Below are positions 13,139-55,849 of a stretch of 64,000 nt of DNA, piece after piece (the stretch's first letter is position 1; each line of letters starts with the position of its first letter). Source of the stretch: a virus; the IMG/VR virus record IMGVR_UViG_3300006226_001721, positions 10,314-74,313 of that record; one strand, 5' to 3'. Both the position numbers and the translations under genes were made by a program. The notes beneath the pieces were generated by a model. That model saw only the letters and a program-made list of their open reading frames with translations, was not told where the DNA came from and did no database searches.

Positions 13139-13744
13139 ATGAGTAAAGGTATTGTAATTGCAGATATCGATGACACAATGATCAAAGCAGAAGCAGGAGA
13201 TATCGGCATTTGGAAGCTAAAAGATGGTAAAGAGACTCGCTTATCAACAGATGATTTCGCTAAAGATCCAGACAAAGATGATCCAAAGGTCAAATTTGAC
13301 TATCGAGAATTCAACGATCCAGAAAAGGTAAGAGATAGTATCATTAATGGCACACCTTTACTTAAGAACTTAAAGATCATAGACAACTATTTGAGCAAAG
13401 GATTTGACTTTGCTTTTCTAACAGCTCGAGGTAGTGAAGATGTCATTAAAGAAGTGATGACTTCGTTCTTAAAAGACAGAGATAAAGATGGTCATCTTAA
13501 GCATATAGGTGATAAGTTCAATAAGACTCTCTCATTTGCCGTTAGTGATGAAAAGTACTGTGAGATATTAGACGGCATTAAAGATTTTGATAGAAAGGCT
13601 AAAGTCATTAAGACAATAGCTGAAATGTATGATAATGTTGCTTTCATCGATGATGATATTAGGAATCTAGTAGCAGTTAAGAATTTGCATTTACCAAATG
13701 TGAAGATAATTCGATCATTGAAAGAATCTACAGACCAAACTTAA
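13139..13744 (+). CDS. HAD-superfamily phosphatase/nucleotidase-like protein (start moved to 13139)
   Basis: IADIDDT, LTARG, K, FIDDD motifs. Confidence 0.7.
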   Translation: MSKGIVIADIDDTMIKAEAGDIGIWKLKDGKETRLSTDDFAKDPDKDDPKVKFDYREFNDPEKVRDSIINGTPLLKNLKIIDNYLSKGFDFAFLTARGSEDVIKEVMTSFLKDRDKDGHLKHIGDKFNKTLSFAVSDEKYCEILDGIKDFDRKAKVIKTIAEMYDNVAFIDDDIRNLVAVKNLHLPNVKIIRSLKESTDQT

Positions 13745-14600
13745 ATCCAGTCTTTAACTCGTGTTCATATCCAGGTGGGCAAGGTACTACATCTCTGCCC
13801 GTAGCATTCATAACAGCACAAACACCATGCTTCCATCCTATTTCACCTGGCCATTTCTTATTCAGCCAGCGCCAAACTTCAATGTGTTGTTCATTGTCAT
13901 TTTCGTTCCAACAAATAGAACTCTTTTGCATATGATCTTTCTCGCCTGTTTTGTACATAGCATTCACAAAGCGTATAGTCTTACCATATAGCCGCTTCTT
14001 TCCGATCTGCATAGACAAGTCGTTATCTTCACCTCGCCCTCCAGGTGCTGTTACATCAAAGTTGATGTTGTGCTTAGCTAATATGTCTATGTTAAGACCA
14101 TAACAGCCGGCTATCAATGTCTTAGTAGACTTTTGAACTAATCGCATGTCTTCTTTGATCGCAAAATTGATGAAGCCCATAGTAACTGGCTTAATGAATG
14201 CGTCTTGTTGTATGTCGAGGAACTGCTCCATTGTAGCAAAGAATGAAGCCATGCTAATGTGCATCGTTTTCTTATTAGTATTCTGAGTTATGAATCGACG
14301 ATAATCATCATCAACAGACCAATAGAAATGATAGCCATGCTCTTTTAGCCAGTTGAACATAAAGTGCCGCTTTTCAGCTATGTTGTATCGAGGGTGATAG
14401 ACTAGCTCATTCTCTTCTGAGTAAGTGCCTCGTTGGTCTTCATCTAAAAAGACTATAAGCTTAAGTCCACATTCTTTAGCTAACTGAAATGTCCGACCAT
14501 TCGGCCGACCTCGAGAAGGAACTACTACTGGGTGAATGGGCTTGCCGTCTATGATATGATCGAGATGGTTAAATGCCACGGCGCTTTCCTGCTCTGACAT
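13728..14600 (-). CDS. GT-A fold glycosyltransferase, phage DNA-modifying (TAGT/GREB1-like) type
   Basis: VVVPSRGRP, NIAEKRHF, WSVDDDY, GEDNDL pattern. Confidence 0.55.
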   Translation of the reverse strand: MSEQESAVAFNHLDHIIDGKPIHPVVVPSRGRPNGRTFQLAKECGLKLIVFLDEDQRGTYSEENELVYHPRYNIAEKRHFMFNWLKEHGYHFYWSVDDDYRRFITQNTNKKTMHISMASFFATMEQFLDIQQDAFIKPVTMGFINFAIKEDMRLVQKSTKTLIAGCYGLNIDILAKHNINFDVTAPGGRGEDNDLSMQIGKKRLYGKTIRFVNAMYKTGEKDHMQKSSICWNENDNEQHIEVWRWLNKKWPGEIGWKHGVCAVMNATGRDVVPCPPGYEHELKTGFKFGL

Positions 14601-15276
14601 ATGTGTCTTTCTTACCGAAGTATTTGGTATCTAACTTATAGAGTGTTTCAAATTCGCTATCAAACCAAGCTAAAAGTTGTTCGGCTTTTTCTTCGTTCTT
14701 TATACAGTGAATCTCTATAGCAAAGTATTGCACACTCTTTGGCAACTTAGTCCAGTCTATTGTGTATTCTCCACCTTCAGTGTCGCACTTAATGATAGTT
14801 GGCTTGTACTTCTTAAACTCATCATAGAAGTCTACTGTCTTAACAGTAATCTCTTTGCGACCTTTAGTTGGGATGATACTGTGTCGTCCCATGCATTGCT
14901 TTTTGTTGGGCTTTCTTTCTGTGATATAGAACTTAGTTTCACCATTGCTATCAGTAACAGCTACATTGTTCAATATGACTCTTGTTGGATCTAATTCCTG
15001 TTCAGAAAGTACTAGAAAATTCTCAGGTTCTGGTTCGTAACTTATGACACGCTTAGCACCCGCCTTGAGTGAAAGAAAGGTGAACATACCAATGTTAGCC
15101 CCAATATCCATTACAGTATGTCCTTCACAAACTTCAAAAATAGCCTTGTATTCTCTGAGTTCTTTTAGAACATCGATATCTAATGTGTCAGGACGATATT
15201 TGAAGCCTGTCTTTTCATCTGTTGCTATTATGAGTTCATTCACAAGTTGAGTCTTTTCTCCAAACTTATATGCCAT
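14569..15276 (-). CDS. FkbM-family SAM-dependent methyltransferase
   Basis: VMDIGANIGMF, SYEPEPEN, NVAV, IKCDTEGGE. Confidence 0.85.
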   Translation of the reverse strand: MAYKFGEKTQLVNELIIATDEKTGFKYRPDTLDIDVLKELREYKAIFEVCEGHTVMDIGANIGMFTFLSLKAGAKRVISYEPEPENFLVLSEQELDPTRVILNNVAVTDSNGETKFYITERKPNKKQCMGRHSIIPTKGRKEITVKTVDFYDEFKKYKPTIIKCDTEGGEYTIDWTKLPKSVQYFAIEIHCIKNEEKAEQLLAWFDSEFETLYKLDTKYFGKKDTYVRAGKRRGI

Positions 15277-16181
15277 TAGTTACTCCCAAAATGAAAGCCA
15301 GCATTCTTGGCCTTCTCTGATTTACGAATGTTGTGTGCATTATTTAGTACATCTTCTTTCCAATGTTCATATGTGTCTACTCGATATGTCCAAAATCGGG
15401 GATGATAAGACTTACTCATAGATGGCGCGACATCAATAATGTTGACTTTCAACTTGATTAGTGTGTTAGCGTGACCGTGTTTCTTATAGAGTTCATATCC
15501 TAACATTGAAGCTTTATCATTCCCGGCGGCTGCAATGCTCTTCCCAACTGTTTCGCTATCCTGTGTACCAGATTTGATAATGGCATATTCATTGAATGTT
15601 TGTGGTAAGATTCCCATTTTCCGCATTTCAAGAGCAAAGTCAAAATCGTCCCAAGTTGCAACACCTGTTTCAAATGTTGGTACTATTCCATATCTTTCTT
15701 GATAGATTTTCAAATTAAAGTAGATACATGAATATGGAATTTGATTAGAGTACTTTTTGCCAGTTTTAAGTTTGAAGCGCTTAAAGTTGGCTCCTATGAT
15801 TCCGCCATATACTTCTTCAAAGTTAGGAAGTGCAGCCCGCTTTTCATATTTGAGTGGCTCATCATCTTTCATATTTGCAGCGTCATACTTATTGAAGCCA
15901 GTAATATCATCATCTATAATGAGTAACTGTTCATAACCATTATCTATTGCATATCGTATTATGTTATTACGAATCGTTGGTACAACGGGTGTCTTAAAAG
16001 GGCCGCCATCATCCATTAGAATACCAATTTTAGGATCTAAGTTCCAGTCTGGATATCTATTAGTTGGATAGAACACTATCATATCTTGTGTTTTGTTAGT
16101 TTGGAATGTTAGAAAATCACTATCATATATTTTAGACTTTGGTCCATTTCCAGCTAAAACACCTATCATTAATTTCTTCAT
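15276..16181 (-). CDS. Second GT-A fold glycosyltransferase (TAGT/GREB1-like)
   Basis: PTIRNNII, LIIDDDI, WDDFDFAL pattern paralleling 13728..14600. Confidence 0.5.
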   Translation of the reverse strand: MKKLMIGVLAGNGPKSKIYDSDFLTFQTNKTQDMIVFYPTNRYPDWNLDPKIGILMDDGGPFKTPVVPTIRNNIIRYAIDNGYEQLLIIDDDITGFNKYDAANMKDDEPLKYEKRAALPNFEEVYGGIIGANFKRFKLKTGKKYSNQIPYSCIYFNLKIYQERYGIVPTFETGVATWDDFDFALEMRKMGILPQTFNEYAIIKSGTQDSETVGKSIAAAGNDKASMLGYELYKKHGHANTLIKLKVNIIDVAPSMSKSYHPRFWTYRVDTYEHWKEDVLNNAHNIRKSEKAKNAGFHFGSN

Positions 16182-16570
16182 TTAAATTCTTCCTCATTCT
16201 TTATAGTTTCATATCCATAAGCAACAGCTTTCAATATCTCTTCTTCAATTACTTTAATACTTTGATGATAATTCTTATATGAATCTGGCAAATAATCTTC
16301 TCTACTCATTTTAGTTACTTTATGTATTGCCTCCAATTTCTTTTTAAGACTTAACAAGTCATTTATATTTTTTCCAATGTTATCTAATATTATCTCAACA
16401 TTAGATTTTGTTGTCTTTTTAGATGGCGGAACTTTTGCAAATGCTTTTTTGATTGAACGCTCATCTTCTTCTCCAATAAGATCTTCTGGATCTATTTTTT
16501 TAAATGTGGTAGATTCTACTCCTGCTAATAAAGCATCAATTTCATCTTGACTTAGAGATCCGTCACTCAT
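16178..16570 (-). CDS. Protein with a FliM/FliY-type N-terminal CheY-binding peptide
   Basis: MSDGSLSQDEIDALLAGV contains LSQxEIDALL; remainder is not FliM/FliY-like. Confidence 0.65.
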   Translation of the reverse strand: MSDGSLSQDEIDALLAGVESTTFKKIDPEDLIGEEDERSIKKAFAKVPPSKKTTKSNVEIILDNIGKNINDLLSLKKKLEAIHKVTKMSREDYLPDSYKNYHQSIKVIEEEILKAVAYGYETIKNEEEFK

Positions 16571-16585
16571 AGGCACAATTTTATA

Positions 16586-16888
16586 TTAACTGTACAAATC
16601 TCTAAAGTCGTCATCAAAAGAAGATTTCTTCTCTTGCAATGAAAATTCTTCAAAATCTAAATCTAATGTTTTAACTTCTATATTTTTGATTTCTTTAATT
16701 GTTTTCAAATCTTTTTTAATTTCTTCTTTTATATTTTTCTTTTTTGGTATTGTTATAGAGTCTTTATATCGAAATCTATGATATAAAAACTCTATTAAAT
16801 AACAAAGAATAAAAAGACAAAGAAATGTAATAATTAAACAAGCAAAAATATAATCAATTATCCCGAACATACTCCTCTTCTGAAGCAT
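16586..16888 (-). CDS. Small membrane protein
   Basis: N-terminal hydrophobic helix. Confidence 0.55.
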   Translation of the reverse strand: MLQKRSMFGIIDYIFACLIITFLCLFILCYLIEFLYHRFRYKDSITIPKKKNIKEEIKKDLKTIKEIKNIEVKTLDLDFEEFSLQEKKSSFDDDFRDLYS

Positions 16889-17032
16889 AAATCATTTTAT
16901 TTTCTTCATATAATTTGACTAAAATTTTATATAATTCTTCTTGTTTTTGCTTATTTAATTCTATAATTCCTACTGGTGTCTTAAATTCATTAATCCAATA
17001 TTCAATTCTGTCTGTCATTTTGAGTGCTCCTT

Positions 17033-18424
17033 TTAAAGATTATCAATAATTTCTTTTACTGTTTTTTGTGATTGCTCTATAACTTGATCCATATTAAGAT
17101 ACTGCCAAGAACCTTGTCTTCCAGTAAAATAAATATTTGAATTATTAAAATAATCAAATATTATTTGTTTGTTTTTCTGTTGATCTAAATCATTTATTAC
17201 ATAAGCATTATTAAAATCAAAAGTTTCTATTGTTTTTATTTCTAATTTTCCAAATAATTTTTCTAATCCTTCTGTAATTTTTTTAGGATAATATCCTCTA
17301 ATAAATGTAGGACTATCATCTCTTTCTGTGACTTCTGTCATAAATGTAGTTGTTCCTGAATTATGATAATTTTTTCCAAAAAAATCCAATTTTGAAAATC
17401 TATGAAATTTTATACCAACATCAGCCGAATAAAAAGCAAAATTATTTCCTCCAATATCTCCTTCAATAGTTACTATTCCAATATTTATTTTATTGGAAAT
17501 TAATTTTTGTGCTGTTTCTTTTACTATTTTATGATTAGTATCATAATTTTTTACAAATGTTGTTAATGGAATTGTATTTATTAAGATATCATAATTATAA
17601 CTTAATTCAGTAGTTTCATTAATTGTACTTTTAATTACTACAACAGGTGGTTCATTTTTATTTATTTCTTGTTCTGTTATAGAAGTTTTTCCATCTGTTA
17701 GTCCAAAAGAATGTATTTGTTTTTTAGTAATTTTATGAACTTTTTCATTTAATCGTATTTTAATTTTATTATTTAATTTTTGTGCAAAGGAATCTATAAA
17801 AGTTTTTGTTCCACCAGATTCCGGATAAAAGAAATTTAACTGGTGAAGATAGCCATCGACAGTTTCTCCTTTTAATGATCGTTCTATATCTTCAATAGGT
17901 GGTTTTGGTATTCTTTCTACCATTTGTAAATCCATAAAAGTTGGATCAAACTTCCATATTTTTTCATTATATGGTAATAAATATAATTTTGAAATTCCAA
18001 CTCCAAAAGTTTTAAGAAAGAATTGTCTCATATTAGTTGCTTCATAATTTTCATACGGATTATTTCTAAAAGTAGACTCTACATATTGTTTTTCTCCTTC
18101 AGATAATTTTCCTAAATCATTTTCAAATGGATATTGTAAGTATTTTTTATCATGAATTATTATATTAGAACGTCTATGAACATTAATATTAGGCATCATT
18201 ATATCTTCCATAAAATCTAATGTATCTTTATTTTTAGAAAAGAATATATGAGGACCAATATCAAAAGTTATCCCAGATTTAGACTTAAATGACCTACAAA
18301 GACCACCTAAAGTATCTTCTTTTTCTATAATAATAATTTCATCTATATCAGGATTATCTTGAAGAAAATAAGCCGAACTTATTCCAGCTAGACCTCCGCC
18401 TAAGATAACAACTCTTTTACCCAT
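17033..18424 (-). CDS. FAD-dependent UDP-galactopyranose-mutase-like enzyme
   Basis: GGGLAG dinucleotide motif, GGLCRS, FDIGPHIFFS, YPFEN, PYNEKIW, YPESGGT, GRQGSWQYLNMDQ. Confidence 0.7.
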   Translation of the reverse strand: MGKRVVILGGGLAGISSAYFLQDNPDIDEIIIIEKEDTLGGLCRSFKSKSGITFDIGPHIFFSKNKDTLDFMEDIMMPNINVHRRSNIIIHDKKYLQYPFENDLGKLSEGEKQYVESTFRNNPYENYEATNMRQFFLKTFGVGISKLYLLPYNEKIWKFDPTFMDLQMVERIPKPPIEDIERSLKGETVDGYLHQLNFFYPESGGTKTFIDSFAQKLNNKIKIRLNEKVHKITKKQIHSFGLTDGKTSITEQEINKNEPPVVVIKSTINETTELSYNYDILINTIPLTTFVKNYDTNHKIVKETAQKLISNKINIGIVTIEGDIGGNNFAFYSADVGIKFHRFSKLDFFGKNYHNSGTTTFMTEVTERDDSPTFIRGYYPKKITEGLEKLFGKLEIKTIETFDFNNAYVINDLDQQKNKQIIFDYFNNSNIYFTGRQGSWQYLNMDQVIEQSQKTVKEIIDNL

Positions 18425-18433
18425 TAAAATATC

Positions 18434-19015
18434 CTAATTAAAAGTTATATGTTTGTAACAATCAAAGATAATATGGTCAATAATTAAAGATAAGTCTTCA
18501 AAAATGCCCATATTATTTGTTTCTAGATGAAATGATTTTTTTGCTGTTTCTTTTAACTTTCCACCATTAAATCCAACTATAGCATAAGTAATAGCATTGT
18601 TCTCATTAGCATATTGCATTGCTTTAATTACATTTTTAGAATTGCCACTACCAGAAATTCCCAATACTAAATCTCCTGGTTGTAAAAAGTTCTTTAACTG
18701 TTCAACAAAAATATCATCATAACTAGCATCATTAGCAATGGCTAACATAGTTGGAATATTGTCATTTAAGCAGATCATCTTAAATCGAGTATCATTTTGA
18801 TGATTAGCATAATTCATTCCCTTATTAAAGTCGTTTGCCCAATGTGATGCTGTTGAACCAGAGCCACCATTTCCCATAACAAATATTTGTCGTTTTTCAT
18901 TTCGAGCTTTAATCAACTCTAAAATTAGATCTATAAGAAGAGTATCTTTCTTTTTTAACTCATCTAATTGTGCTTGCAAATCTGCAATATATTTGTGTAC
19001 ATTAGTTATTAGCAT
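18434..19015 (-). CDS. gmhA: SIS-domain phosphosugar isomerase (sedoheptulose-7-P isomerase-like)
   Basis: MGNGGSGSTASH, AIAND..YDDIF.EQL, GISGSGNSKNV, EDLSLIIDH. Confidence 0.85.
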   Translation of the reverse strand: MLITNVHKYIADLQAQLDELKKKDTLLIDLILELIKARNEKRQIFVMGNGGSGSTASHWANDFNKGMNYANHQNDTRFKMICLNDNIPTMLAIANDASYDDIFVEQLKNFLQPGDLVLGISGSGNSKNVIKAMQYANENNAITYAIVGFNGGKLKETAKKSFHLETNNMGIFEDLSLIIDHIIFDCYKHITFN

Positions 19016-19952
19016 TCATTAACTCCTTAATTGCCTTTTTAACTGCATTATCAGAAGATAAATCTAAATCAAATCCAAGTTTGTGCAACTTATCTGTATT
19101 ATATTTGAAAGTATTTAAGTCACCAACCCATCCAATATCTTCTGTTCCATATCTAATTGTGTTACAATTAAATTCAGCCGCGCACCATTCAGCCATATTT
19201 TTGATAGTTGTTGTAGAATTATCCATTGGTGCGACATTATATACATTAACTCTTCTAGATGAACTTATCCACGAATACATAATAGCATCTATCAAATCTT
19301 TAACATGAATATATGGCTTATGCTGTGTGCCATTTCCTAATACTTCTAATTGTGTTGAATCTTTCTTTAATCTCTCTATAAAGTCATAAAGAGCACCATG
19401 TGTCATTCGTGATCCAACTACATTTGGAAATCTTATTATCCAAGCTCTAATATCATAATTGTGAACAAACGATGATATAAAACTTTCTGATGCTAATTTA
19501 GCAGCGCCATAATGAGACACTGGCATTAATGGTCCATGATTTTCTTGAACTTGAAGGCTACCAGTATCTCCATAAATAGCAGAAGTAGATGCGAATACAA
19601 ATTGTTTTATCTTATAGATATCAGCAACACACAACATATCATATGTAGTCTTAAATGTGCGATCAAAATCTATTCGAGGGTTTTTGTGAGATTTAGATAT
19701 ATCTGAATTAGCAGCAAAGTGAAATATCACATCTGATTCTTTTAAGTATTCATTTTCTACATATGATAGTTTGGTGATATCTTGTTGTATGAAAGTAAAT
19801 CTAGGATGCTTAGGATTTATCAGATGAGCGAGATTTTTAAGATTTCCTAATGATAAGTCATCAATACCAATCACGCTATAATCTCGCTTAATAAGTTCGT
19901 CAACTAAATGACTTCCAATAAAGCCCGCAGCACCGGTTACTATACATTTCAT
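19002..19952 (-). CDS. NAD-dependent nucleotide-sugar epimerase/dehydratase (extended SDR)
   Basis: TGAAGFIGSH, FASTSAIYG, YGAAK, RFPNVVG. Confidence 0.9.
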   Translation of the reverse strand: MKCIVTGAAGFIGSHLVDELIKRDYSVIGIDDLSLGNLKNLAHLINPKHPRFTFIQQDITKLSYVENEYLKESDVIFHFAANSDISKSHKNPRIDFDRTFKTTYDMLCVADIYKIKQFVFASTSAIYGDTGSLQVQENHGPLMPVSHYGAAKLASESFISSFVHNYDIRAWIIRFPNVVGSRMTHGALYDFIERLKKDSTQLEVLGNGTQHKPYIHVKDLIDAIMYSWISSSRRVNVYNVAPMDNSTTTIKNMAEWCAAEFNCNTIRYGTEDIGWVGDLNTFKYNTDKLHKLGFDLDLSSDNAVKKAIKELMNANN

Positions 19953-19955
19953 GTT

Positions 19956-20624
19956 CTACTCCAATTCTAACAAATTAGTCAATGTTATTTCTACTGAGGA
20001 TCCTGGCTTGACTATTTTCCAAGGTTCTTGATCTTCTCTATAAAAAGTTGTTGACATTTCATTGTAAGCATTCTTTACTCTAGTTTCAAAAAGAACAGTT
20101 TCATTATCAAATAAGTCATGCTCATTATCTTTTCTATTTCCAACTTTCTCAGGGAAATAATAGATGATATTAGGAATAACGTCCTTATATGGATTTTTGA
20201 ACCAATTTAGCAGATCAATTGCAACTCTTTGACCTTGAGTTTTAGTTAAGTCATCTATTAACTTTTTGCCAAATAACTGATATGCTACAGTAGAATAGGT
20301 GTATCTATCACATATAACTGTTTTGCCTTCTTGTAATGCTGGACGAATAATCTTATCAACACATTCAGCTCTATCTAAAAGAAAGGCAAATAGATTTCCA
20401 TAATCTGATAAGTTCCATCGTTTGTCTTTACACAATGATCTTAATGTTGTAGCTAATGGACCCCAATCTCCACCAGGTTGTCGTGTTAAAATAGTTGATA
20501 TATTGTTTTGACTTAAAGTATCTGCTAATAGTTCAGCAACAGAACTTTTTCCAGTATTTTCGTAACCTTCAAAAACTATAAGTTTTTTAGTAAAATGATC
20601 TATTTGTTTTGGTGTTAAAATCAT
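19956..20624 (-). CDS. tmk: Thymidylate kinase
   Basis: FEGYENTGKS, TRQPGG, LLDRAE, CDRYTYSTVAYQ. Confidence 0.85.
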   Translation of the reverse strand: MILTPKQIDHFTKKLIVFEGYENTGKSSVAELLADTLSQNNISTILTRQPGGDWGPLATTLRSLCKDKRWNLSDYGNLFAFLLDRAECVDKIIRPALQEGKTVICDRYTYSTVAYQLFGKKLIDDLTKTQGQRVAIDLLNWFKNPYKDVIPNIIYYFPEKVGNRKDNEHDLFDNETVLFETRVKNAYNEMSTTFYREDQEPWKIVKPGSSVEITLTNLLELE

Positions 20625-21259
20625 AGGCTTTCATCATATATAGAATTCCAAGCTGTTTCTGTCATATTAAGATTAGTTACCTTATCCTGATAGACATCAT
20701 CTACATCCTTCCCGTCTTCTTTTCTAACATAAAGATTAAGAGCACCCTTAAATTCACTTTTTGGTGTAAAGTTGATATCCTCTGATACTTGAGAACAGCC
20801 AAAGTTCAACTCATCTGCTAAATCACAAATAGTTTTTTGATAGCCTTTCATATTCTCAATAGCTTGCCAAGTTTCATCTACATCATTAACTCTAACATCT
20901 TTATTGCTAACAGTAATTTCAACTCCTTTAGCTTTCAATGCATCAAAGTAGACATCTAACATATCTAATTTGCCAATGGCAGCTAAATCATCTACTATTT
21001 GAAGTAACTTTCTAAATGTTGGTGTTACTCTGTCTGGGAACTTTTCATCAGGATCTCTGCTCAATGGATCATTTCCAACCCAGCCACTTCCTCGGTAATA
21101 AGCATAATCTTTACAACGAATCATAATTGGCTTTTCTATCTTTTGCATTTTAGCCATATCTGCACCAATCATATTCATGTGTTTACTATTAGTCTTTTTC
21201 TCTCTTAAAATTTCGGCTGACTCTTCTAATAGTTCAGCAGGTGTAGTAGTCTGTGACAT
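20621..21259 (-). CDS. Hypothetical protein
   Basis: ORF with GGAG SD and GTTAATATA motif upstream. Confidence 0.6.
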   Translation of the reverse strand: MSQTTTPAELLEESAEILREKKTNSKHMNMIGADMAKMQKIEKPIMIRCKDYAYYRGSGWVGNDPLSRDPDEKFPDRVTPTFRKLLQIVDDLAAIGKLDMLDVYFDALKAKGVEITVSNKDVRVNDVDETWQAIENMKGYQKTICDLADELNFGCSQVSEDINFTPKSEFKGALNLYVRKEDGKDVDDVYQDKVTNLNMTETAWNSIYDESL

Positions 21260-21291
21260 ATTTTATCTCCTTAAATGTCTTTTATTTTATA

Positions 21292-21834
21292 TTAACTATC
21301 ATGATATTGTTCTATATCTATCGAACTTTTAGAATAATGTCCTAAAAGATTAATGATATCTGCACCATTGTATTCTTTAAAATAGCGCTTATTATCTATA
21401 ATAATCTGTCTGTTGAAATTAGTAACTTGGCTTTCTATGTCTCTATCATAATAATGGTCAAAGATGATTCGTTTGATACCAGCAGCAATTACTAATTTAG
21501 CACAATTTTTGCAAGGACAAATAGTAGTGTAGAGAGTTGATCCTTCTGGAGATAATCCGCGCTTTGCTAAATCTAATATTGCGTTCATTTCGGCATGTAT
21601 TTCATATTGTTCTGAAAAAAGATGATGTTCAGATTGTTCTTTGTTATCTCTTAAGTTCTCACAAGCCTCATTACAGTTGATAAATCCGCTGGGTGTGCCA
21701 TTATATCCACAACCAATAATACGATTATCTTTAGTAATAACAGCACCAACTTTTAATCGAGAACATTTAGACTTTTCAGCCATTATTCGAGCAATTTCTA
21801 TAAATGTTTTGTCCCATTCTTTTTGATTAGGCAT
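21292..21834 (-). CDS. dCMP deaminase
   Basis: KVGAVI, GYNGTPSG, HAEMNA, PCKNC. Confidence 0.9.
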   Translation of the reverse strand: MPNQKEWDKTFIEIARIMAEKSKCSRLKVGAVITKDNRIIGCGYNGTPSGFINCNEACENLRDNKEQSEHHLFSEQYEIHAEMNAILDLAKRGLSPEGSTLYTTICPCKNCAKLVIAAGIKRIIFDHYYDRDIESQVTNFNRQIIIDNKRYFKEYNGADIINLLGHYSKSSIDIEQYHDS

Positions 21835-21996
21835 CTTTTTTCCTTTGTTTGAGTCTTTCTTTTTTACTCATTTTGATTTTTGGTTCATGTCTTCTTATAG
21901 ACCCCTCATAATGAATCCAATATTTGTTTGTATCTAATGTTTCATGAGAGAGATTTTCATATCTTTCTTCAAATGTTTGTTTCTTGTCTTCCATTT

Positions 21997-22809
21997 CTAT
22001 AATTTATAATAGTCTTGAAATTCTTTAATGATTTTATTTACTAAATCAAAATCTCTTTCATAGACATGTAATGATCCAGCATTCCAATAAATACTTCCAA
22101 TTTCTGGATCTCTATTGCTAAACATTTTGATATCACTTAATAGTTGATTATACACATATCCATGCCATGGAAGATCTCCACAATGTAATCCTCTAATTAC
22201 ATCATTACTTCTCATAGTTACAATGTATTCTAATTTGTTCTTACGAATGAAATGTTGAGTACAAAAAGTACAAGTAAAATCTGATTTAGCATTTACATTA
22301 TCATTCCATTCCCATTGCATTTGAGGTCTGCCATAATAGATGACAGACTGTCTTCCTTCTGGTTTATCACAAAGTTGTTCCAAAGCATATTTATATTGAG
22401 ATTTGCCAATTTTTGCTGGACCTAAGTTCTCTGGACCATTTGGATATCTTTCAGCACCCCAATTATTTCCATTCTCTGGACTAAATACACACCAACCATA
22501 ATTACTATTTACTCTCCCATCATCAGAACATATTTTAGACCAAATAGGATTATCTTCAATACCAGGGTGACCTTTGATACATCTATCTTGACTTAAATAC
22601 CAATTAGTTTCATTTTCAATGTATTTAAGTTGCGGCTTTCTTGCTTCACCTAAATAGAGCTTAGTATCTTGAGCCTCAAATACTAAATTAGCATTCAAAA
22701 TCTCAGCTGTGCCATTTACTAAATCATTTTTTTGAATCTTTTCCCACAATGGAAATAAAGCATTCTTAATTAAATAAATAGAATTTCTACTATATTTTGT
22801 TTGTTCCAT
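21997..22809 (-). CDS. dCMP hydroxymethylase-like enzyme (T4 gp42 family of the thymidylate synthase fold)
   Basis: ENETNWY, NSNYGW, RPQMQ, DFTCT (catalytic Cys), MRSND, GDLPW (Asp at the specificity position), WNAGSLHVY align with T4 gp42. Confidence 0.8.
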   Translation of the reverse strand: MEQTKYSRNSIYLIKNALFPLWEKIQKNDLVNGTAEILNANLVFEAQDTKLYLGEARKPQLKYIENETNWYLSQDRCIKGHPGIEDNPIWSKICSDDGRVNSNYGWCVFSPENGNNWGAERYPNGPENLGPAKIGKSQYKYALEQLCDKPEGRQSVIYYGRPQMQWEWNDNVNAKSDFTCTFCTQHFIRKNKLEYIVTMRSNDVIRGLHCGDLPWHGYVYNQLLSDIKMFSNRDPEIGSIYWNAGSLHVYERDFDLVNKIIKEFQDYYKL

Positions 22810-23338
22810 TTAAAGTTTCCTTTATTATTTCAAATACTTGTTCTGGTGATTTTTGATCTATATTTATTAAACATTTATTTTTTATATTAGATTTTTCGAA
22901 AAAGCTAGAAAAACGATTTATTTCATTTTGTTTTTTCTCAAATTCAACTGAAAATGATAGACCATCTTCTCTCTTTATTAAGTTTTCTGGATTATCTATA
23001 AATACAAATAAAATACAATTTTGTAATACTTTATTTCCAAAATTAGTTTCTATTTCATAAACATATTCACCAGAATAATTTCTATAAATAGGAGAATAAA
23101 CAGTTTCACCTCCATGAGCTCTATCAAAAATTAAATTTTTATTATTATAAGTTGCAAATTTGATTAAATCAAACATTTCTTTATAATATTGTTTGGATCT
23201 TTCTTCTATATTGTTGCCTTTTATTGAAGAATAGTGTAATACATGAACTAATTTATCTTTTTCTTCTAAATACTTTTTAATGTTAGATATTTGAGTTCCT
23301 TTTCCAACATTATCAGGTCCTTCACATACAATTACCAT
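22790..23338 (-). CDS. Second dNMP (thymidylate-type) kinase
   Basis: CEGPDNVGKGTQ P-loop, FDRAHGGE. Confidence 0.75.
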   Translation of the reverse strand: MVIVCEGPDNVGKGTQISNIKKYLEEKDKLVHVLHYSSIKGNNIEERSKQYYKEMFDLIKFATYNNKNLIFDRAHGGETVYSPIYRNYSGEYVYEIETNFGNKVLQNCILFVFIDNPENLIKREDGLSFSVEFEKKQNEINRFSSFFEKSNIKNKCLINIDQKSPEQVFEIIKETLNGTNKI

Positions 23339-23355
23339 CTTTAATCTCCTTAATT

Positions 23356-24003
23356 TTAAATTAACTTAAGAAAAAGCTCACCATAATTATTATAGTGATA
23401 TCTGATACCATTATCTAAACAATATTTTTTAAGATTATCATCATTTTTATTATCTACCACATAAAGTTTTCTTTTAAGAATATATTTCTCTTTTAGAGAT
23501 TTAATTAACTTCTTATAGTCATCTGATATAACTATAATACTAGTAAATTTATGATTTATGATTTCTTGAGTTGCTAATTGGTTATAGCTTTTATCTGTAA
23601 TAATCCCACAAAGACTATTAAATTGTTCATAAAATAATCGAGGTCCAGTAAACTGAGTAGGTGTTCCTATCCATAAACAATAAGGAGCTCTCCATTCTCC
23701 TATTTTTAGTGTCTTGGCGATTTCTACCGATTCAAGAGAAAAATCTGTTTTGAAATCTTCCCACTCTTGAAAATGGTCAGGATTTTCTATCGCGCCACCT
23801 TTGAAAGCTAAAAGAGTTAGATGTGTAGAATCTATTGCAGTCCGCCATTCTTTTTCTAATTTCTTTTCTTTTAATTTGATTTTAAGTTGTTCATATAAAG
23901 AAATCTCTTCTTCACCTTCACCTATATCAATATACATTCCTCGTTCACCATTAGCTGGTCCATAAGGAAATAATCCAAATGTAACATCATTAAGCTTTAG
24001 CAC
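23356..24003 (-). CDS. Hypothetical protein
   Basis: ORF in the operon. Confidence 0.55.
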   Translation of the reverse strand: MLKLNDVTFGLFPYGPANGERGMYIDIGEGEEEISLYEQLKIKLKEKKLEKEWRTAIDSTHLTLLAFKGGAIENPDHFQEWEDFKTDFSLESVEIAKTLKIGEWRAPYCLWIGTPTQFTGPRLFYEQFNSLCGIITDKSYNQLATQEIINHKFTSIIVISDDYKKLIKSLKEKYILKRKLYVVDNKNDDNLKKYCLDNGIRYHYNNYGELFLKLI

Positions 24004-24403
24004 TTTCTTGTTCCTTTATTATTTTCTCTCTAATTATATCTTTATTTTCTATAAAGTTATCTATTTTTCCTTTTAATTCTTCTAAAATCTTATCATAAGA
24101 TTTAGATCCTTTTTTCTCATTTGTAGAATATAATTCAGTAACTGAATACTCTATTCGTTTTTCTTCATCATAATAATATAAGGTTGTTCTATTATCTTTT
24201 CCTGGTCTAATGGAACACTTTAATCCTTTTTCGAAGGTGTATTCAAAGACTTCTTGAATTAGTGGGTCCATTTCAATTTTAGGTGCTAATTCTACTGCTT
24301 TTGTTTCTAATTGTTTTAAGTTTTTGATGAACTTAATCAAACTGAATAATAAACCTAAAGTTATTACGTTAAAAATAAATTGTATAATGATAATTATTTC
24401 CAT
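23990..24403 (-). CDS. Membrane-anchored hypothetical protein
   Basis: N-terminal hydrophobic helix. Confidence 0.55.
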   Translation of the reverse strand: MEIIIIIQFIFNVITLGLLFSLIKFIKNLKQLETKAVELAPKIEMDPLIQEVFEYTFEKGLKCSIRPGKDNRTTLYYYDEEKRIEYSVTELYSTNEKKGSKSYDKILEELKGKIDNFIENKDIIREKIIKEQESAKA

Positions 24404-26253
24404 ATATCTATATTAACTCCTATTTCTTCATCAGCATTAAAGATCATTCTCCATTCGTTTTGACTTAAAGAATTTCTTTTAATGAGATTTTCTAATACTT
24501 TTCCTTTTCTCTCTAAGTTTTGGAACATAAGATTATCTATGCTATAATTGTAACATAAATTATAGTATCTAACTTCATCTTCTTGTCCAATGCGATAATT
24601 TCTTCCTCGAGATTGTTCATAATTTATGTAACTTGCAGTTTTTTCAAAAAATACAGATGCTTTAGCCTCTACTAATGTAATTGATGTAGTCATTATATTT
24701 ATAGATGCTAATAATATCTTATCTTTACTTTTCTTAAAGTTTTCTATAATTTCAAAGCGTTCTTCTTTTGGAACTTCTGCAGATAAAATATGAAAGCCTT
24801 TTTTAAGATGTTGTTCTAAGCATTTCAAAGTTATCGGATGATAATAAAAGATAATAATCTTATTCTCATTTTCAATGCACTCTTCTTCTATAATTAGGTC
24901 TAAAGCATTTAGTTTTTCAAAATCTTTTTCAAAATTAAATTGTTTGATTTTTTGTTGTAATAATGGATCAAACTTATCAAAAGATGGTGTAGTTAGAAGA
25001 CATAATGGATTATCTACTGCTAATTGTAGATACATAAAAGTGTTCATTAAATTAGCAACTAATCCAGCATTATTTATAGAGTTTCTATTTTTAATATCAT
25101 TAATAACTTCATAAGTAAAAGTCTCATATATCTCTCGATGCTTAGGCGTCATATCTAAATGAATTACTGGCACATCATAAGCTGGAGGTAAGTTAAGAAG
25201 TTCTTTTCCTCTTTTAACTGCGTAATTCTTATATAGTTCATCTTGTAATTCAGCCCACTTAATTTGATTCCAGCTGTCTTTATTAATGCCATATTTTGAC
25301 CATCTATTTCCTAACTCACAATATTCAGACAACCAACTATAATAGTCCAAACCATTAATAAGTTTGTTATTCAATATTTTAAGAAGCAAATACATCTTTT
25401 CTTCTTTATCATTAGGTGTTGCAGAGAACATATAACGATATTCAAAAAATTGTAAGTTCATATTGATAAACTTTGATCTTAATGAATTAGGACTTCCTAA
25501 TAAATGACATTCATCTAAAAAGATAATTCCTTTATGATTTCCAAACCATTCTTGTAATGGTAATGGTGATTTTCTATATTTAACTTTCTTTTTACGATTG
25601 TTAAAGTTCTTATCATAAGCATCACCTATTATTCGAAATGTATCATAACCGCATATTACAATATCATATTGATCTGTAAATATTAGTCTGTCTTTTAATC
25701 CAGTTACTGACTTAATTACTAAAGTTTTCGATTCATCATAATTAGGTATAAACTTATTTAATTCATTTGGTAAGTTCATAACACCAATAGATGATGTTAA
25801 AATAATAGCTTTTTTAATTTCACCAATATTTTTTAAGTGTTGATATAAAGAAGCTAAAGCCCAACTTTTTCCTAAACCAGTTTGCCAAGCAAACAAATAT
25901 CTATTACGATTATGTGCTGTATTAAAATCTATAAGTTGAAAATCTTTTAATGGTGGGACTCTTAATAAGTTTTGATCAAACTTTCTATAATCTGATCTTT
26001 TAGATATTATTTTTAATTCATCTAAATTGATAAAATATTGCTTAATTTCTTGTTTGGTGTATTCATCTATATCTAATTTATATTGTGATAATTCTTTAAC
26101 AACTTCATCAAACTTACCTACTCCAATTTGCCAATATTTCTTTTTAGCATCATATCTCATACCTAATAACTTTACAGACTCAATTTGTTCTGTAAAATTA
26201 TCACCTGAGCATTTAACTAATAATTGTTCATCTTCGTAGGCAAGTTGGATCAT
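24394..26253 (-). CDS. SF2 (SNF2-like) helicase
   Basis: QTGLGKS, LDECH, SATP, QSRGRNYRIGQ. Confidence 0.85.
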   Translation of the reverse strand: MIQLAYEDEQLLVKCSGDNFTEQIESVKLLGMRYDAKKKYWQIGVGKFDEVVKELSQYKLDIDEYTKQEIKQYFINLDELKIISKRSDYRKFDQNLLRVPPLKDFQLIDFNTAHNRNRYLFAWQTGLGKSWALASLYQHLKNIGEIKKAIILTSSIGVMNLPNELNKFIPNYDESKTLVIKSVTGLKDRLIFTDQYDIVICGYDTFRIIGDAYDKNFNNRKKKVKYRKSPLPLQEWFGNHKGIIFLDECHLLGSPNSLRSKFINMNLQFFEYRYMFSATPNDKEEKMYLLLKILNNKLINGLDYYSWLSEYCELGNRWSKYGINKDSWNQIKWAELQDELYKNYAVKRGKELLNLPPAYDVPVIHLDMTPKHREIYETFTYEVINDIKNRNSINNAGLVANLMNTFMYLQLAVDNPLCLLTTPSFDKFDPLLQQKIKQFNFEKDFEKLNALDLIIEEECIENENKIIIFYYHPITLKCLEQHLKKGFHILSAEVPKEERFEIIENFKKSKDKILLASINIMTTSITLVEAKASVFFEKTASYINYEQSRGRNYRIGQEDEVRYYNLCYNYSIDNLMFQNLERKGKVLENLIKRNSLSQNEWRMIFNADEEIGVNIDIWK

Positions 26254-26864
26254 TCTATTTTATCTATTTTAAATTTATTTAAGCTATTTCTTTTTTCTTT
26301 ACTACTATTTGAACTTAAATTTAATTTAAAAGCATAAGTACCATTTCCATTAGAAGATAAAAATTTATAAGGACTATAAGTACATCCAAAATTATTTTTT
26401 TTATCTTGTAATATAGAAGAGTCAATTTTATATAAATTTACAACTTCTTCTCTAATATCATAACCTATTAATAATAAATAATCAAAATATTTAGGAATTA
26501 TTCTAGACCATTCATAATGATAATAACCATTAATTATATGAGACGCAGAATACTTTATTTCCCAAACTTCTCCATTTTTATCAAGTAAATCAGCTGTCTC
26601 AGTATATTGATCTCTATTATCCCATCCATAATTTATTTCTATATATTTTTGAGTTAATCGTCCAATAGTTTGAGAATTACTAACAGGGTATTGAACAATT
26701 ATAAATTCATCTAATGGGAGTTCACAAATTAATGGATTTTTTTCTTTATATTTTAATAAAATATCTCTTACTTTACTTGATGAGTTTTGTCTTTGTAGTT
26801 GTAAATTTTGTGTAATTGAAGAAGTATTTGGAAAACATTGCTTAAATTCATTATTTCTTTTCAT
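26250..26864 (-). CDS. Possible PD-(D/E)xK nuclease
   Basis: TADLLDKNGEVWEIKYS. Confidence 0.35.
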   Translation of the reverse strand: MKRNNEFKQCFPNTSSITQNLQLQRQNSSSKVRDILLKYKEKNPLICELPLDEFIIVQYPVSNSQTIGRLTQKYIEINYGWDNRDQYTETADLLDKNGEVWEIKYSASHIINGYYHYEWSRIIPKYFDYLLLIGYDIREEVVNLYKIDSSILQDKKNNFGCTYSPYKFLSSNGNGTYAFKLNLSSNSSKEKRNSLNKFKIDKIE

Positions 26865-26879
26865 CTATATCCTTCCCTT

Positions 26880-27992
26880 TTAATATAAATTAACATGTTT
26901 GCCATTGAATGGTTTGTGTTGATAACAATCTTTAAAAAACTGTACTTCGTTCTCTGTATAAGTTTTTCTAATTCCATACAAATCTGTAAAAAGTTGCTTA
27001 TAATACTTATATTCTTCTGTAGATTTACAATAATGCAATCTCATAACTGCCCAACGTAAATTGTATGATCTAGGTTTCGGTTGTTGTTTTAGATATCGCT
27101 GACAATATCTTTGCATTATATCTATGTCTACATCTGTTGAAGCAATTATATAAGAAATATCTTTTGCTTTCTTAAGCACATTTTTATGATTAATTATAGG
27201 TTTTTCAGATAATGCATTTTGATTATGAAATTTAATATGATAACTATAACCTGAAGTAGACTTAAAGCCATTAGTTCCAAACTCTTTTAACAGATCTTTT
27301 AAGTTCATAAAATCTTTATATTCAAAAATATAATCTGAATGTTCTATTCGATAAGCTCTATATTTTGCATTTGCTCCAATAAAAGCTCCTCGTAATGTTG
27401 TTTGTAAGTATATTGGATCAACTTTAAGATGTATGAGATTAGTTTGTACATGTTGATTTTGATCATAATAATCTACATCATAATTATTGAGATTAAGATA
27501 GCCAAAATAACAAATTAAATTAGCATTAAAAAGATCAGATATAAATATCTCATAATTCTTTACTTTAGATTTATTGAATCTTATTAGCTGATTAGATATT
27601 TTATCATATAAATCTTTACAGTTAACTGTCAAAAACATATCACCGCATGTAAAGAAAAGATATTGTCCTTTTAAGAAGTATTGATATTCTTCTATTGGAA
27701 AAGATACCATGTTATTCTGAATATCTAAACAAGTTGATAATCTAATTGCATAATTAAATGGAGATGCTGTAATATGTCCATATATGAAATTATCTTGTAT
27801 GCCTTTTTCATTTTTGATTTTTACACAACCAGGAATGATTTTAGTAAGAGGTGTGCTATATAAATGAATGAACAATTTAGCATACTTATTTGATAATAAA
27901 TTTAGAAATTTCAGATGAGCAAATCTATCTGTAGCCTTCCATTTAGAATAAATGGACTTTTTGGTTAAAGTTTCCCAGTCTATATAGTTCAT
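26880..27992 (-). CDS. Hypothetical protein
   Basis: 370-aa AT-rich ORF with no recognised motif. Confidence 0.5.
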   Translation of the reverse strand: MNYIDWETLTKKSIYSKWKATDRFAHLKFLNLLSNKYAKLFIHLYSTPLTKIIPGCVKIKNEKGIQDNFIYGHITASPFNYAIRLSTCLDIQNNMVSFPIEEYQYFLKGQYLFFTCGDMFLTVNCKDLYDKISNQLIRFNKSKVKNYEIFISDLFNANLICYFGYLNLNNYDVDYYDQNQHVQTNLIHLKVDPIYLQTTLRGAFIGANAKYRAYRIEHSDYIFEYKDFMNLKDLLKEFGTNGFKSTSGYSYHIKFHNQNALSEKPIINHKNVLKKAKDISYIIASTDVDIDIMQRYCQRYLKQQPKPRSYNLRWAVMRLHYCKSTEEYKYYKQLFTDLYGIRKTYTENEVQFFKDCYQHKPFNGKHVNLY

Positions 27993-28002
27993 TTATATTA
28001 GA

Positions 28003-53816: not shown

Positions 53817-53829
53817 ATAAACTGAAAAA

Positions 53830-53901
53830 TAGTTCCAACCGGATTTGCACCGATACTACAACCTTCGCAGGGTTGTGTGTTATCTATTACACTATGGAAC
53901 T
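53830..53901 (-). tRNA. tRNA-Arg(GCG)
   Basis: Cloverleaf; anticodon loop CT-GCG-AA; no encoded CCA. Confidence 0.9.
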
Positions 53902-54118
53902 AAAAGATACGCCAAGGCCGTAGTTGCTTAAGAAAAAAGATAGAAAAGTATATAGCAAAGTATGGCCACATTAGAAAGCACAACATAAAATGAAGCACTT
54001 TTTCACTGAGGAGTTCTACTGAATCTTTTAACGCTAATTCATTACAAACGGCAAATATCATGCCAATAACAAAATAAGAAATCAAATACATCATATCCGA
54101 TCCTAACAGGAATTGCAC
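53900..54118 (-). CDS. Small membrane protein
   Basis: Two hydrophobic segments between tRNAs. Confidence 0.45.
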   Translation of the reverse strand: MQFLLGSDMMYLISYFVIGMIFAVCNELALKDSVELLSEKVLHFMLCFLMWPYFAIYFSIFFLKQLRPWRIF

Positions 54119-54169
54119 CCATATTCCTGGTTCCGAAGACCAGTGTCTTATCTGTTAGACGATAGGACC
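54098..54169 (-). tRNA. tRNA-Arg(TCG)
   Basis: Cloverleaf; loop CT-TCG-GA. Confidence 0.9.
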
Positions 54170-54304
54170 TCAATCAAAAATATCTTCTAATACTTCTTCT
54201 ATTTTCTCAGGTATATCTTCAAAAATAACTTCAGGTACCTTTTCAAATAAAAATTCTGGTACATCCTCAAAAATAAAATCTAATAAACCCATTTAAATTC
54301 CTTT

Positions 54305-54377
54305 TACCTCCAGAGAGAATTGCACTCCCGACCAACGGATTAGAAGTCCGCTACTCTATCTCCTGAGTTATGGAGGC
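54305..54377 (-). tRNA. tRNA-Arg(TCT)
   Basis: Cloverleaf; loop CT-TCT-AA. Confidence 0.9.
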
Positions 54378-54725
54378 GTTCATAAACTTCGCTCTATCTC
54401 GAAATAGGCGATCAATATCTTTTTGTACATCTGTTAAGTCACTTTCTACAATGATAAGACCATCATTAGGAGTTGCCCAAACTGAAATGAAGCAACAGTC
54501 AGGATCATCATAGTTGTAGTTGAAAGTGATCTCTGGTTCTCTGTGCCAGATGACATCTAATCCATCTTCTCCTAGAACGATATAGATATCTGAATCTATC
54601 ACATTAGCCAACTTTTCTAAGAATTTGGCTGATAGTGTCATATTCAGCTTTATCTTACCATAAAGTTGAATGTATCGCTTTATAGCATCTTGCATCTTCA
54701 AATCTAACATATGTAGTGTTATCAT
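54351..54725 (-). CDS. Hypothetical protein
   Basis: ORF whose 3' end overlaps tRNA-Arg(TCT). Confidence 0.45.
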   Translation of the reverse strand: MITLHMLDLKMQDAIKRYIQLYGKIKLNMTLSAKFLEKLANVIDSDIYIVLGEDGLDVIWHREPEITFNYNYDDPDCCFISVWATPNDGLIIVESDLTDVQKDIDRLFRDRAKFMNASITQEIE

Positions 54726-54878
54726 AATAAATAGTAACGGATGGGAACAACCGCCCTTCACTCGATCGATTGAATGGGTCCGTCAACTCCATAAGACAGT
54801 TTGCTATGATTGTCTCCTAACACAGAACGTAACGTGTTCATCTACGTCACAGTCTACTACTATAGTCTCGACTGTTAG

Positions 54879-54951
54879 TCAGAACGGCTGGATTTGAACC
54901 AGCGACATCTTGGCTCCAGACCAAGCAGGCTCCCAACTGCCCTACGCTCTG
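54879..54951 (-). tRNA. tRNA-Pro(TGG)
   Basis: Cloverleaf, C1-G72, A73; loop TC-TGG-AG. Confidence 0.85.
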
Positions 54952-54962
54952 ATACGGGTGAT

Positions 54963-55124
54963 ATGGATAGGAAATGGATTGGACCACTCATCTTTTACAC
55001 ATAGTATGATTACTCCTGTTTTCGTCATACTGTCTACTATTCTCTTAACTAGTATGGGTGAGAAATACGTAGAACCCTCTTTGCACTCCTGCTAGTGTAA
55101 CTGTTTTCTTTAAACTACTATCCA
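54963..55124 (-). ncRNA. tRNA scaffold with a 96-nt insert replacing the anticodon loop
   Basis: Acceptor TGGATAG/CTATCCA, D stem GTTT/AAAC, anticodon stem TTACA/TGTAA, degenerate T arm. Confidence 0.6.
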
Positions 55125-55130
55125 AGCTAT

Positions 55131-55288
55131 TCGACAAGGTAGAGTTACGAACTCTCATTTTCTGCAAAGGTGTTCAACATCAGCGTCGACTATGCCAACG
55201 TTGAATGAAGGGCTTATCAGTGTCCGGATTGTTGCCCACACTCATCTCTCTCCGATATTGCAGCTGTTTTTCATTAAACTACAAGTCG
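55131..55288 (-). ncRNA. tRNA scaffold with a 90-nt insert replacing the anticodon loop
   Basis: Acceptor CGACTTG/CTTGTCG (two U-U), D arm nearly identical to its neighbour, stem CTGCAA/TTGCAG, T loop TTCGTAA. Confidence 0.55.
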
Positions 55289-55405
55289 TTAAAATGTGGG
55301 CTTTCCACCCACTCTGGGATTCCACCAGTTGGCTCATTACTAGTTCACCTCACCTGTTAACTCAGGGACTCTCGAAAGAGCGGAGTTTAGTGAACATCGC
55401 AAGAT

Positions 55406-55478
55406 TGGACCTGACGCGATTCGAACGCGCATTTCACTCCTTGCAAAAGAGGACGATAGCCTTTATCGTAACAAGCCC
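55406..55478 (-). tRNA. tRNA-Ala(TGC); an alternative register would read GCA
   Basis: G3.U70 and A73 Ala determinants; loop TT-TGC-AA. Confidence 0.7.
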
Positions 55479-55483
55479 AAAAG

Positions 55484-55681
55484 CAGGAACTGTCTAAGGC
55501 GACACTAGACGAACAGCTCCTATTGTACGCATCCTCACCAGGCCTTACGTAAGTATGTAGTCGCAAAGTGTGGATCTAAGATCTTTATTGAACGACTATA
55601 TCCTCGGCCATACTAAACCGGACCTGGTAACTTTAGTCCAGGCTACATAACAGATACTAAACTCCCTAGGGTTTTTCTGCT
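55484..55681 (-). ncRNA. Unassigned structured RNA between tRNA-Gly and tRNA-Ala
   Basis: AGCAG/CTGCT closing helix, CCTGG/CCAGG, TAGTCG/CGACTA, GGAGCTGT/ACAGTTCC. Confidence 0.45.
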
Positions 55682-55686
55682 GTTTG

Positions 55687-55759
55687 AGCGGGTAAGGGGA
55701 ATTGAACCCCTGACAACAAGTTTGGAAAACTCGTACTCTACCAACTGAGTTACACCCGC
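55687..55759 (-). tRNA. tRNA-Gly(TCC)
   Basis: Cloverleaf; loop TT-TCC-AA; U73. Confidence 0.92.
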
Positions 55760-55766
55760 AAAAATG

Positions 55767-55848: not shown

Positions 55849-55849
55849 T

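Follow-up and report, generated by a model that had tools for sequence, protein, structure and literature searches.

A small phage protein carries the FliY-type EIDAL peptide on an unrelated helical hairpin and may act as a soluble mimic of the spirochaete flagellar switch

Here we describe P0001, a protein of 130 amino acids (aa) encoded in a 64,000-nucleotide (nt) stretch of the IMG/VR virus record IMGVR_UViG_3300006226_001721 (positions 10,314 to 74,313 of the record; this whole stretch is called the window). We observed that residues 1–21 of P0001 are a copy of the N-terminus of the spirochaete (Treponema-type) FliY protein, and that nothing beyond them resembles FliY. We propose, with a probability of about 0.5, that P0001 acts as a soluble mimic of the N-terminus of host FliY and competes for the partner of the latter, which would most likely be phosphorylated CheY (CheY-P). 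The EIDAL motif of FliM and FliY is the high-affinity docking site for CheY-P (PMC6946799, PMC9126983); its presence on a viral, non-motor scaffold is the new element here.

The open reading frame (ORF) of P0001 occupies 16178..16570 of the window on the minus strand, with the ATG at 16570, coding sequence down to 16181 and a TGA stop codon at 16178–16180. An initial annotation had placed an ORF at these positions, to which the strand is added here, and had reported the motif LSQxEIDALL at its N-terminus. This motif is present: the N-terminus reads MSDGSLSQDEIDALLAGV, with LSQDEIDALL at residues 6–15. The EIDAL peptide as we delimit it comprises residues 1–21 (MSDGSLSQDEIDALLAGVEST; 16508..16570, minus strand). 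When the P0001 family was compared by hhalign with 104 spirochaete FliY proteins, these residues aligned at 76% identity with a probability of 97% and an E-value of 7.5e-11, while nothing aligned past residue 21. By this profile comparison, the match of the peptide to FliY is far above chance.

Searches of genomes and proteins pointed to the same group of bacteria. The pattern MSDG[ST]L[ST]QDEIDALL, back-translated and used on species genomes, matched at least 120 of them. Among the matches listed, 119 were named Spirochaetota and one was titled 'uncultured bacterium'; throughout these (at least 120) the pattern opened a reading frame, and 105 of 120 frames were 340–420 aa long, which is the size of FliY. 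Judged from these matches, the pattern is likely to be exclusive to Spirochaetota. The first 15 residues of P0001 are the same as in many Spirochaetota FliY proteins, and in a set of 5.8 billion proteins the sole non-self match was a FliN/FliY protein in which they are identical. Of the 80 best loci in the metagenome collection, 68 were open frames of at least 220 aa. Every frame that was read through among these best 80 was a FliY gene (356–409 aa, 46–56% guanine plus cytosine (GC)) starting MSDGALSQDEIDALLAGVDS, a start that shares 86–90% identity with residues 1–21 of P0001 and coincides with the phage family's consensus. Many of these FliY genes were sampled in the JGI series that also yielded the phage contigs, possibly termite-gut metagenomes. 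The expectation in the initial annotation that the first 20 residues would find their best matches in spirochaete FliY was therefore borne out by pattern, profile and metagenome comparisons alike.

In two spirochaete metagenome-assembled genomes (MAGs), FliM begins with M[TN]EVLSQDEIDQLLTAIS and FliY with MSDGSL[ST]QDEIDALLQG; by type, therefore, the phage peptide belongs with FliY. The 10-mer LSQDEIDALL is found in six stretches among 2.9 million IMG/VR contigs and once in the six frames of the 94 kb contig from which the window is taken. At the DNA level, the first 45 nt of the gene match host fliY genes at up to 40 of 45 positions. As 40/45 is what would be expected for identical peptides, identity at the 5' end does not distinguish capture of a host fragment from convergence.

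An exhaustive phmmer search over 1.84 billion representatives yielded six homologues, P0003–P0008, of 123–140 aa (E-values 2e-12 to 9e-4), which are 23–37% identical to P0001. Five of them lie on phage contigs of 18–328 kb and the sixth on a contig of 5.7 kb whose genes are in the same order. Loss of the motif among homologues, named by the initial annotation as one observation that would refute its claim, is not what this family shows: all six keep the peptide and it is their most conserved segment. The mean pairwise identity is 67% over residues 1–18, falling to 32% in the linker and to 22% in the hairpin that follows. Residues M1, E10, I11, L15, D30, L31, G119 and Y120 are invariant, and at position 12 five of the seven members have D, while the remaining two have E and N. 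The excess of identity in the peptide over the linker and hairpin, together with the invariance of E10, I11 and L15, indicates that selection acts on the peptide itself. Even with residues 1–21 removed, the family members match one another with E-values of 1e-7 to 1e-19; hence, they constitute a true, diverged family rather than the result of repeated captures. In P0007 (on a Logan contig, L135:2119-2160), an 8-nt insertion splits the peptide, so that MSDGALSQDE is followed by a stop codon and a GTG restart gives MNEIDALLAGV; either the assembly is at fault here or the copy is decaying. P0008 (L136:6001-6423), the family's most divergent protein, ends with ...DDEIPDDIPF. The C-terminal tip of the bacterial single-stranded DNA-binding protein (SSB) is DDDIPF, and P0008 may mimic this tip as well, which would put a second copied motif on one scaffold.

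We modelled P0001 by AlphaFold2 (AF2) using the family alignment (mean predicted local distance difference test score (pLDDT) of 72). The model has a short helix at residues 8–15, followed by an acidic linker (residues 22–50; 16421..16507, minus strand) that is predicted to be disordered from the model and the alignment. Residues 18–37 have pLDDT below 50, and the low-confidence acidic stretch as a whole runs from 18 to 50. It contains a conserved motif, D-D-L-[IVM]-G-E, which is DDLIGE in P0001 (nt 16460–16492). The remainder, residues 51–129 (16184..16420, minus strand), is modelled as an antiparallel alpha-helical hairpin of two helices, 51–87 and 96–129, with pLDDT of ~80–94; the invariant G119 and Y120 are in the sequence GYE at nt 16208–16216. 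As FliM and FliY have the same arrangement of a helical peptide followed by a disordered tether, this architecture supports a mimic of the FliY N-terminus.

By the searches made, the hairpin itself is unrelated to FliM and FliY. Foldseek on PDB, VIA-align wide and ESM Atlas returned generic helical hairpins only; clusters of FliM and CheC fragments were matched weakly by language model (score below 0.9), owing to the N-terminus of P0001. There was no Pfam match at E-values up to 0.01, including the middle domains PF02154 and PF04509 and the SpoA domain PF01052, and PHROGs gave a single marginal match of unassigned function. P0001 is thus outside the FliM/FliY/FliN family, the defining domains of which were tested for and are absent. 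The initial annotation had described the rest of the protein as an unrelated coiled coil devoid of CheC or SpoA domains, and both the model and the lack of alignment past residue 21 agree with that description. Treponema-type FliY carries the same peptide at the same extreme N-terminal position, also followed by a flexible linker. It differs from P0001 in that it has CheC-like and SpoA (FliN) domains, is ~340–420 aa long and is built into the C-ring, whereas P0001 has neither domain and should be free in the cytoplasm.

The phage host is probably a gut spirochaete. A spirochaete MAG having a FliY with the N-terminal pattern (isolate Nc350_bin164) was taken as a candidate host; to judge by its name, it may come from a termite gut. 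Its cheX-cheY pair includes an orthologue of CheY3, P0019 (PDB 3HZH, E-value 8.8e-51), in which we find, by aligning the sequences by eye, K91, Y106 and an arginine at position 119. The N-terminal segment of FliM, FliM_N, binds to the alpha4-beta5-alpha5 face of CheY-P (PMC9126983; bioRxiv 10.1101/781468), and structures of FliM_N of E. coli and T. maritima with CheY, for example 1F4V and 4IGA, are cited in the literature. In this complex D12 of FliM forms a salt bridge to K119 of CheY (bioRxiv 10.1101/781468). P0001 has the LSQxEIDALL core in common with FliM_N of these two species, with D12 at the corresponding position and the hydrophobic residues I11, L14 and L15 present. The peptide of P0001, a putative ligand of CheY-P, differs from FliM_N in being of the FliY subtype.

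In the mechanism that we propose, a generic helical-hairpin body would display a near-exact FliY EIDAL peptide on a flexible acidic tether of ~30 residues, with the hairpin serving as a stable and possibly oligomerising body. P0001 would be produced as part of a long operon that serves nucleotide metabolism and DNA modification, presumably early or in the middle of infection by analogy with T4. The free peptide could then compete with the FliM and FliY of the motor for the protein that docks on them, most likely CheY-P of the CheY3 type; CheY-P would be retained in the cytoplasm and the motors would remain in their default state. In Borrelia, cheY3 mutants constantly run and cheX mutants constantly flex (bioRxiv 10.1101/2020.05.18.101634). 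By analogy with the former, infected cells would be expected to run continuously, with no reversals or flexing, and to lose chemotaxis, from which the phage may benefit. The initial annotation had suggested a decoy that either titrates CheY-P or docks on the motor to alter host motility, and this interpretation is partly supported. Titration of CheY-P and an effect on motility may follow from the conserved peptide. Docking on the motor is unlikely, because within the motor the peptide serves as the site on which partners dock, and P0001 has no domain resembling those that assemble into the C-ring.

Several observations weigh against CheY-P as the target. The sequence of the phage peptide is that of the FliY type (MSDG...ALLAGV) and not that of spirochaete FliM (MTEVLSQDEIDQLLTAI), and in Borrelia it was FliM, not FliN, that was pulled down by CheY3-P (bioRxiv 10.1101/2020.05.18.101634). 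The host assignment derives only from the peptide and the co-occurring FliY genes. The 10-mer LTQDEIDALL occurs near the N-terminus of another protein (L233:5111-5139, L234:690-718), which, reading it by eye, we take to be a phage tyrosine-recombinase-like integrase, and a similar amphipathic helix is found in the LD motifs of paxillin. The latter were the sole PDB sequence match to residues 1–40 (E-value ~0.8), and we discarded them as a chance likeness between amphipathic helices. Because of these two cases, the short core alone is not diagnostic; it is the match over 20 residues that counts. Two further points, the binding of FlhG by EIDAL and the position of the gene upstream of a DNA glycosyltransferase, lead to distinct alternatives.

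The first of these alternatives is that the peptide titrates FlhG, a MinD-like ATPase that reaches nascent C-rings via the EIDAL of FliM or FliY. In such a case, the number or placement of flagella, or the division and polarity functions linked to FlhG, would be disturbed rather than chemotactic signalling. EIDAL has been reported to be required, and to be enough, for FliM of Shewanella to bind FlhG (bioRxiv 10.1101/2022.04.21.489128), and the partner of B. subtilis FlhG is FliY, not FliM (PMC12826062), which fits the FliY type of the phage peptide; moreover, the candidate host MAGs carry flhA-flhF-flhG, with a candidate FlhG encoded at L150:2700-3587. The initial annotation had not considered FlhG, the binding of which by EIDAL weakens its claim for CheY-P. 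We nevertheless regard titration of FlhG as unlikely. Stopping the formation of new flagella would be slow to pay off compared with a lytic cycle, an FlhG–FliY interaction in spirochaetes is presumed from other bacteria, and the existence of multi-copy EIDAL proteins, one of them encoded beside a REC-domain gene (described below), points to a receiver domain as the partner. Binding to FlhG and binding to CheY-P are not mutually exclusive.

The second alternative arises from the gene neighbourhood. Downstream of P0001 lies a gene for a TET-associated glycosyltransferase (TAGT; 15276..16181, minus strand; Pfam PF20691, E-value 2.7e-8, phrog_842), which is translationally coupled to it: the P0001 stop codon overlaps the ATG of the TAGT gene by 4 nt (ATGA). 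This TAGT gene is the first of a glycosyltransferase–FkbM methyltransferase–glycosyltransferase module for DNA hypermodification. Upstream, after a gap of 15 nt between the end of that gene and the start of P0001, is a gene for a membrane protein of 100 aa with a single pass and an acidic tail rich in aromatic residues (16586..16888, minus strand), which is 29–36% identical to its counterparts at three homologous loci (L004, L006, L135); at two further loci, a similar-sized gene occupies this position. TAGT orthologues of 30–47% identity follow the P0001 homologue in five other loci, so that six of the seven loci have the order of a ~100-aa small gene, a P0001-type gene and a TAGT gene, with overlaps or gaps of 0–8 nt. 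The trio is embedded among genes for thymidylate-synthase (TS)-like, deoxynucleoside-monophosphate kinase, deoxycytidine-monophosphate deaminase, short-chain dehydrogenase/reductase (SDR), radical-SAM, TAGT and FkbM proteins.

It is conceivable from this arrangement that P0001 is an accessory of DNA hypermodification, whether it pairs with, regulates or localises the TAGT or counters restriction of the modified DNA. In that case, the N-terminal helix would be used for another interaction, and its likeness to FliY would be due to a captured fragment or to convergence. The persistence of the order small gene–P0001–TAGT across proteins of 23–37% identity and the resemblance of the upstream genes in three loci favour such a role, as do the acidity of the protein (isoelectric point 4.4–5.2), which is shared by many DNA mimics, and the SSB-tail-like DDIPF at the end of one homologue, P0008. 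Nonetheless, we consider it improbable. The entire cluster is colinear between related phages (TS-like 51–73%, SDR 46–56%, TAGT 30–47% identical), so adjacency is what common descent would produce. The locus of P0008, the most divergent member, contains small unassigned genes and homing endonucleases and no glycosyltransferase nearby, and Pfam, PHROGs and fold searches found no nucleic-acid- or sugar-binding domain in P0001. An accessory role also leaves unexplained why the 20 best-conserved residues equal the N-terminus of host FliY.

Alternatively, P0001 could be a CheY-P phosphatase resembling CheZ in reverse order, the dimerising hairpin of which drains the signal rather than sequestering it. 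CheZ, the proteobacterial CheY-P phosphatase, has its CheY-docking peptide at the C-terminus, a flexible linker and a long hairpin with catalytic Asp and Gln residues. The combination of docking peptide, flexible tether and long hairpin in P0001 is parallel to that of CheZ, and the hairpin is confidently predicted. In P0001, unlike in CheZ, the peptide is N-terminal and the catalytic residues are not conserved, and there is no match to CheZ in sequence or fold, only generic hairpins being returned by the fold searches. The invariant residues of the hairpin are limited to G119 and Y120, and no pair of Gln/Asn and Asp/Glu is conserved in it among the family members; a phosphatase site of the CheZ or CheC type is therefore unsupported. 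The CheC-class signature D/S-x3-E-x2-N-x22-P was also absent. We considered that DDLIGE in the linker might be what is left of the active-site helix of CheC (D-A-I-G-E-x-x-N), and rejected this because the Asn three residues past the Glu is missing and hhalign leaves this region unaligned. Overall, a phosphatase is very unlikely. That P0001 is a functionless remnant, in which a captured 5' piece of host fliY was fused to phage sequence or the similarity arose by chance, is hardly credible even for so small a family, given that the peptide is its most conserved part at 23–37% overall identity, the hhalign E-value is 7.5e-11, the ORF is intact, with protein and DNA identical in three other, independent assemblies (one a 173.8 kb ENA contig), and the C-terminal similarity of the homologues argues against recent independent captures.

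EIDAL peptides also head other proteins outside the motor. In P0012 (107 aa), P0014 (94 aa) and a 105-aa ORF (L164:781-1098, locus GC 24%), the peptide is joined to an unrelated coiled coil encoded by AT-rich DNA. P0009 has two such motifs and P0015 three, with FliM and FliY types mixed; P0009, P0012 and P0015 are on short contigs for which PHROG matches do not settle whether they belong to phage or host. P0018 (L137:6001-6441) is a cellular protein with four or five EIDAL motifs, the gene of which adjoins that of a REC-HD-GYP response regulator. Such cellular proteins place EIDAL outside the motor beside a receiver-domain protein; unlike P0001, they carry it in multiple copies and have no hairpin. 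The record IMGVR_UViG_3300028327_000833 (152.6 kb, 74% complete, ~200 kb implied), whose viral status comes solely from its IMG/VR listing, encodes a 152-aa protein starting MRDILSQDEIDALLNG, directly followed by a 291-aa FliM-domain protein (PF02154, E-value 2e-12) that starts MSNVLSQEEVTALL and has an LSQEEVTALL head (both at L231:4460-5840; the same pair is at L235). No SpoA domain was found anywhere in this record. These non-motor EIDAL proteins, namely the small proteins with one to three copies, P0018 and the 152-aa protein of this record, support the reading of P0001 as a mimic.

A broader possibility, which we put forward tentatively and hold to be doubtful in its full extent, is that the steering of motile gut bacteria is routinely disabled by their large phages via short motifs stolen from the flagellar switch. 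The P0001 family would then be one of several independent scaffolds carrying EIDAL peptides of the FliY or FliM type, the others being the coiled-coil proteins P0012, P0014 and the L164 ORF, the proteins P0009 and P0015 with two and three motifs, and the 152-aa protein beside the FliM homologue. As P0008 also has the SSB-tail-like DDIPF at its C-terminus, the scaffold may even be a general phage platform for motif mimicry, comparable to the short-motif mimicry of eukaryotic viruses.

Among the host functions known to be shut down by phages are pili and some two-component kinases. The nearest functional precedent for P0001 is PIT4 of Pseudomonas phage LSL4, a small early protein that binds to FleS and PilS at their histidine-kinase domains and inhibits motility (PMC10714779). 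Both are small phage proteins that interfere with two-component systems, as is proposed for P0001, whereas PIT4 mimics no host motif and is unrelated to P0001 in sequence. Our literature search retrieved no description of a phage protein that mimics FliM_N or the N-terminus of FliY, or that targets CheY or the flagellar-switch EIDAL-binding site. Should P0001 bind to CheY-P, chemotaxis signalling in bacteria would have its first viral inhibitor, and short-motif mimicry by a phage a clean natural case. P0001 would also offer a genetically encodable CheY-P sponge for spirochaetes, in which the coordination of motors at the two poles remains puzzling. An ecological question would also be raised, as infected gut spirochaetes may swim straight or ignore gradients, possibly affecting the dispersal of the phage.

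The phage origin of the window, assumed in the initial annotation, is supported by the IMG/VR record, by PHROG matches and by the RNA genes. The contig is 93,990 bp long, and CheckV estimates its completeness at 29% and classes it as 'provirus'. PHROG matches in the window include NrdD, a helicase, a tRNA nucleotidyltransferase and DNA glycosyltransferases; it further encodes a Ro-like protein, NAMPT, two TAGTs, an FkbM methyltransferase and a thymidylate-synthase-like enzyme. An array of 16 transfer RNA (tRNA) genes and a transfer-messenger RNA (tmRNA) gene is located at 53829–63949. The tmRNA carries an unusual tag, GNDYSTGYNYGRSNRTAVAFARAA, and in a BLAST search of 301 Spirochaetota genomes with this tmRNA only the universal 3' end of ~30 nt was matched. 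Among 50,697 phage records there was no match, whether by megablast or by tblastn. Related contigs reach 261–328 kb at an estimated completeness of 79%, from which we deduce that these are jumbo phages of roughly 330 kb.

Receiver domains were not detected in the present record or in the related record G004. A jumbo phage relative that encodes P0005, G003 (IMGVR_UViG_3300006226_001702), has an AT-rich hybrid histidine kinase (L141:1483-3345), the open frame of which is 981 aa long; this kinase contains an ATPase domain, two REC domains and, as judged by eye, what appears to be an HPt segment, and its gene is followed by that of an HNH endonuclease. As this kinase was seen in G003 and none in the other two records, a receiver-domain kinase is not a family-wide partner of the P0001-type proteins.

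In the window, all genes from ~23.3 kb down to 13.7 kb are on the strand of P0001 with tiny gaps, which places the P0001 gene within a long operon. A scan for promoters and terminators around the gene gave counts no better than those for shuffled sequence. There is a sharp step in GC content at the 3' end of P0001 (16178–16181): the glycosyltransferase–FkbM–glycosyltransferase module has 36–42% GC, and the value falls to 22–29% from P0001 upstream. Over the region 13728–28000, the module contrasts with 22–32% for P0001 and the ~12 kb upstream of it, which suggests a mosaic origin of the DNA-modification module.

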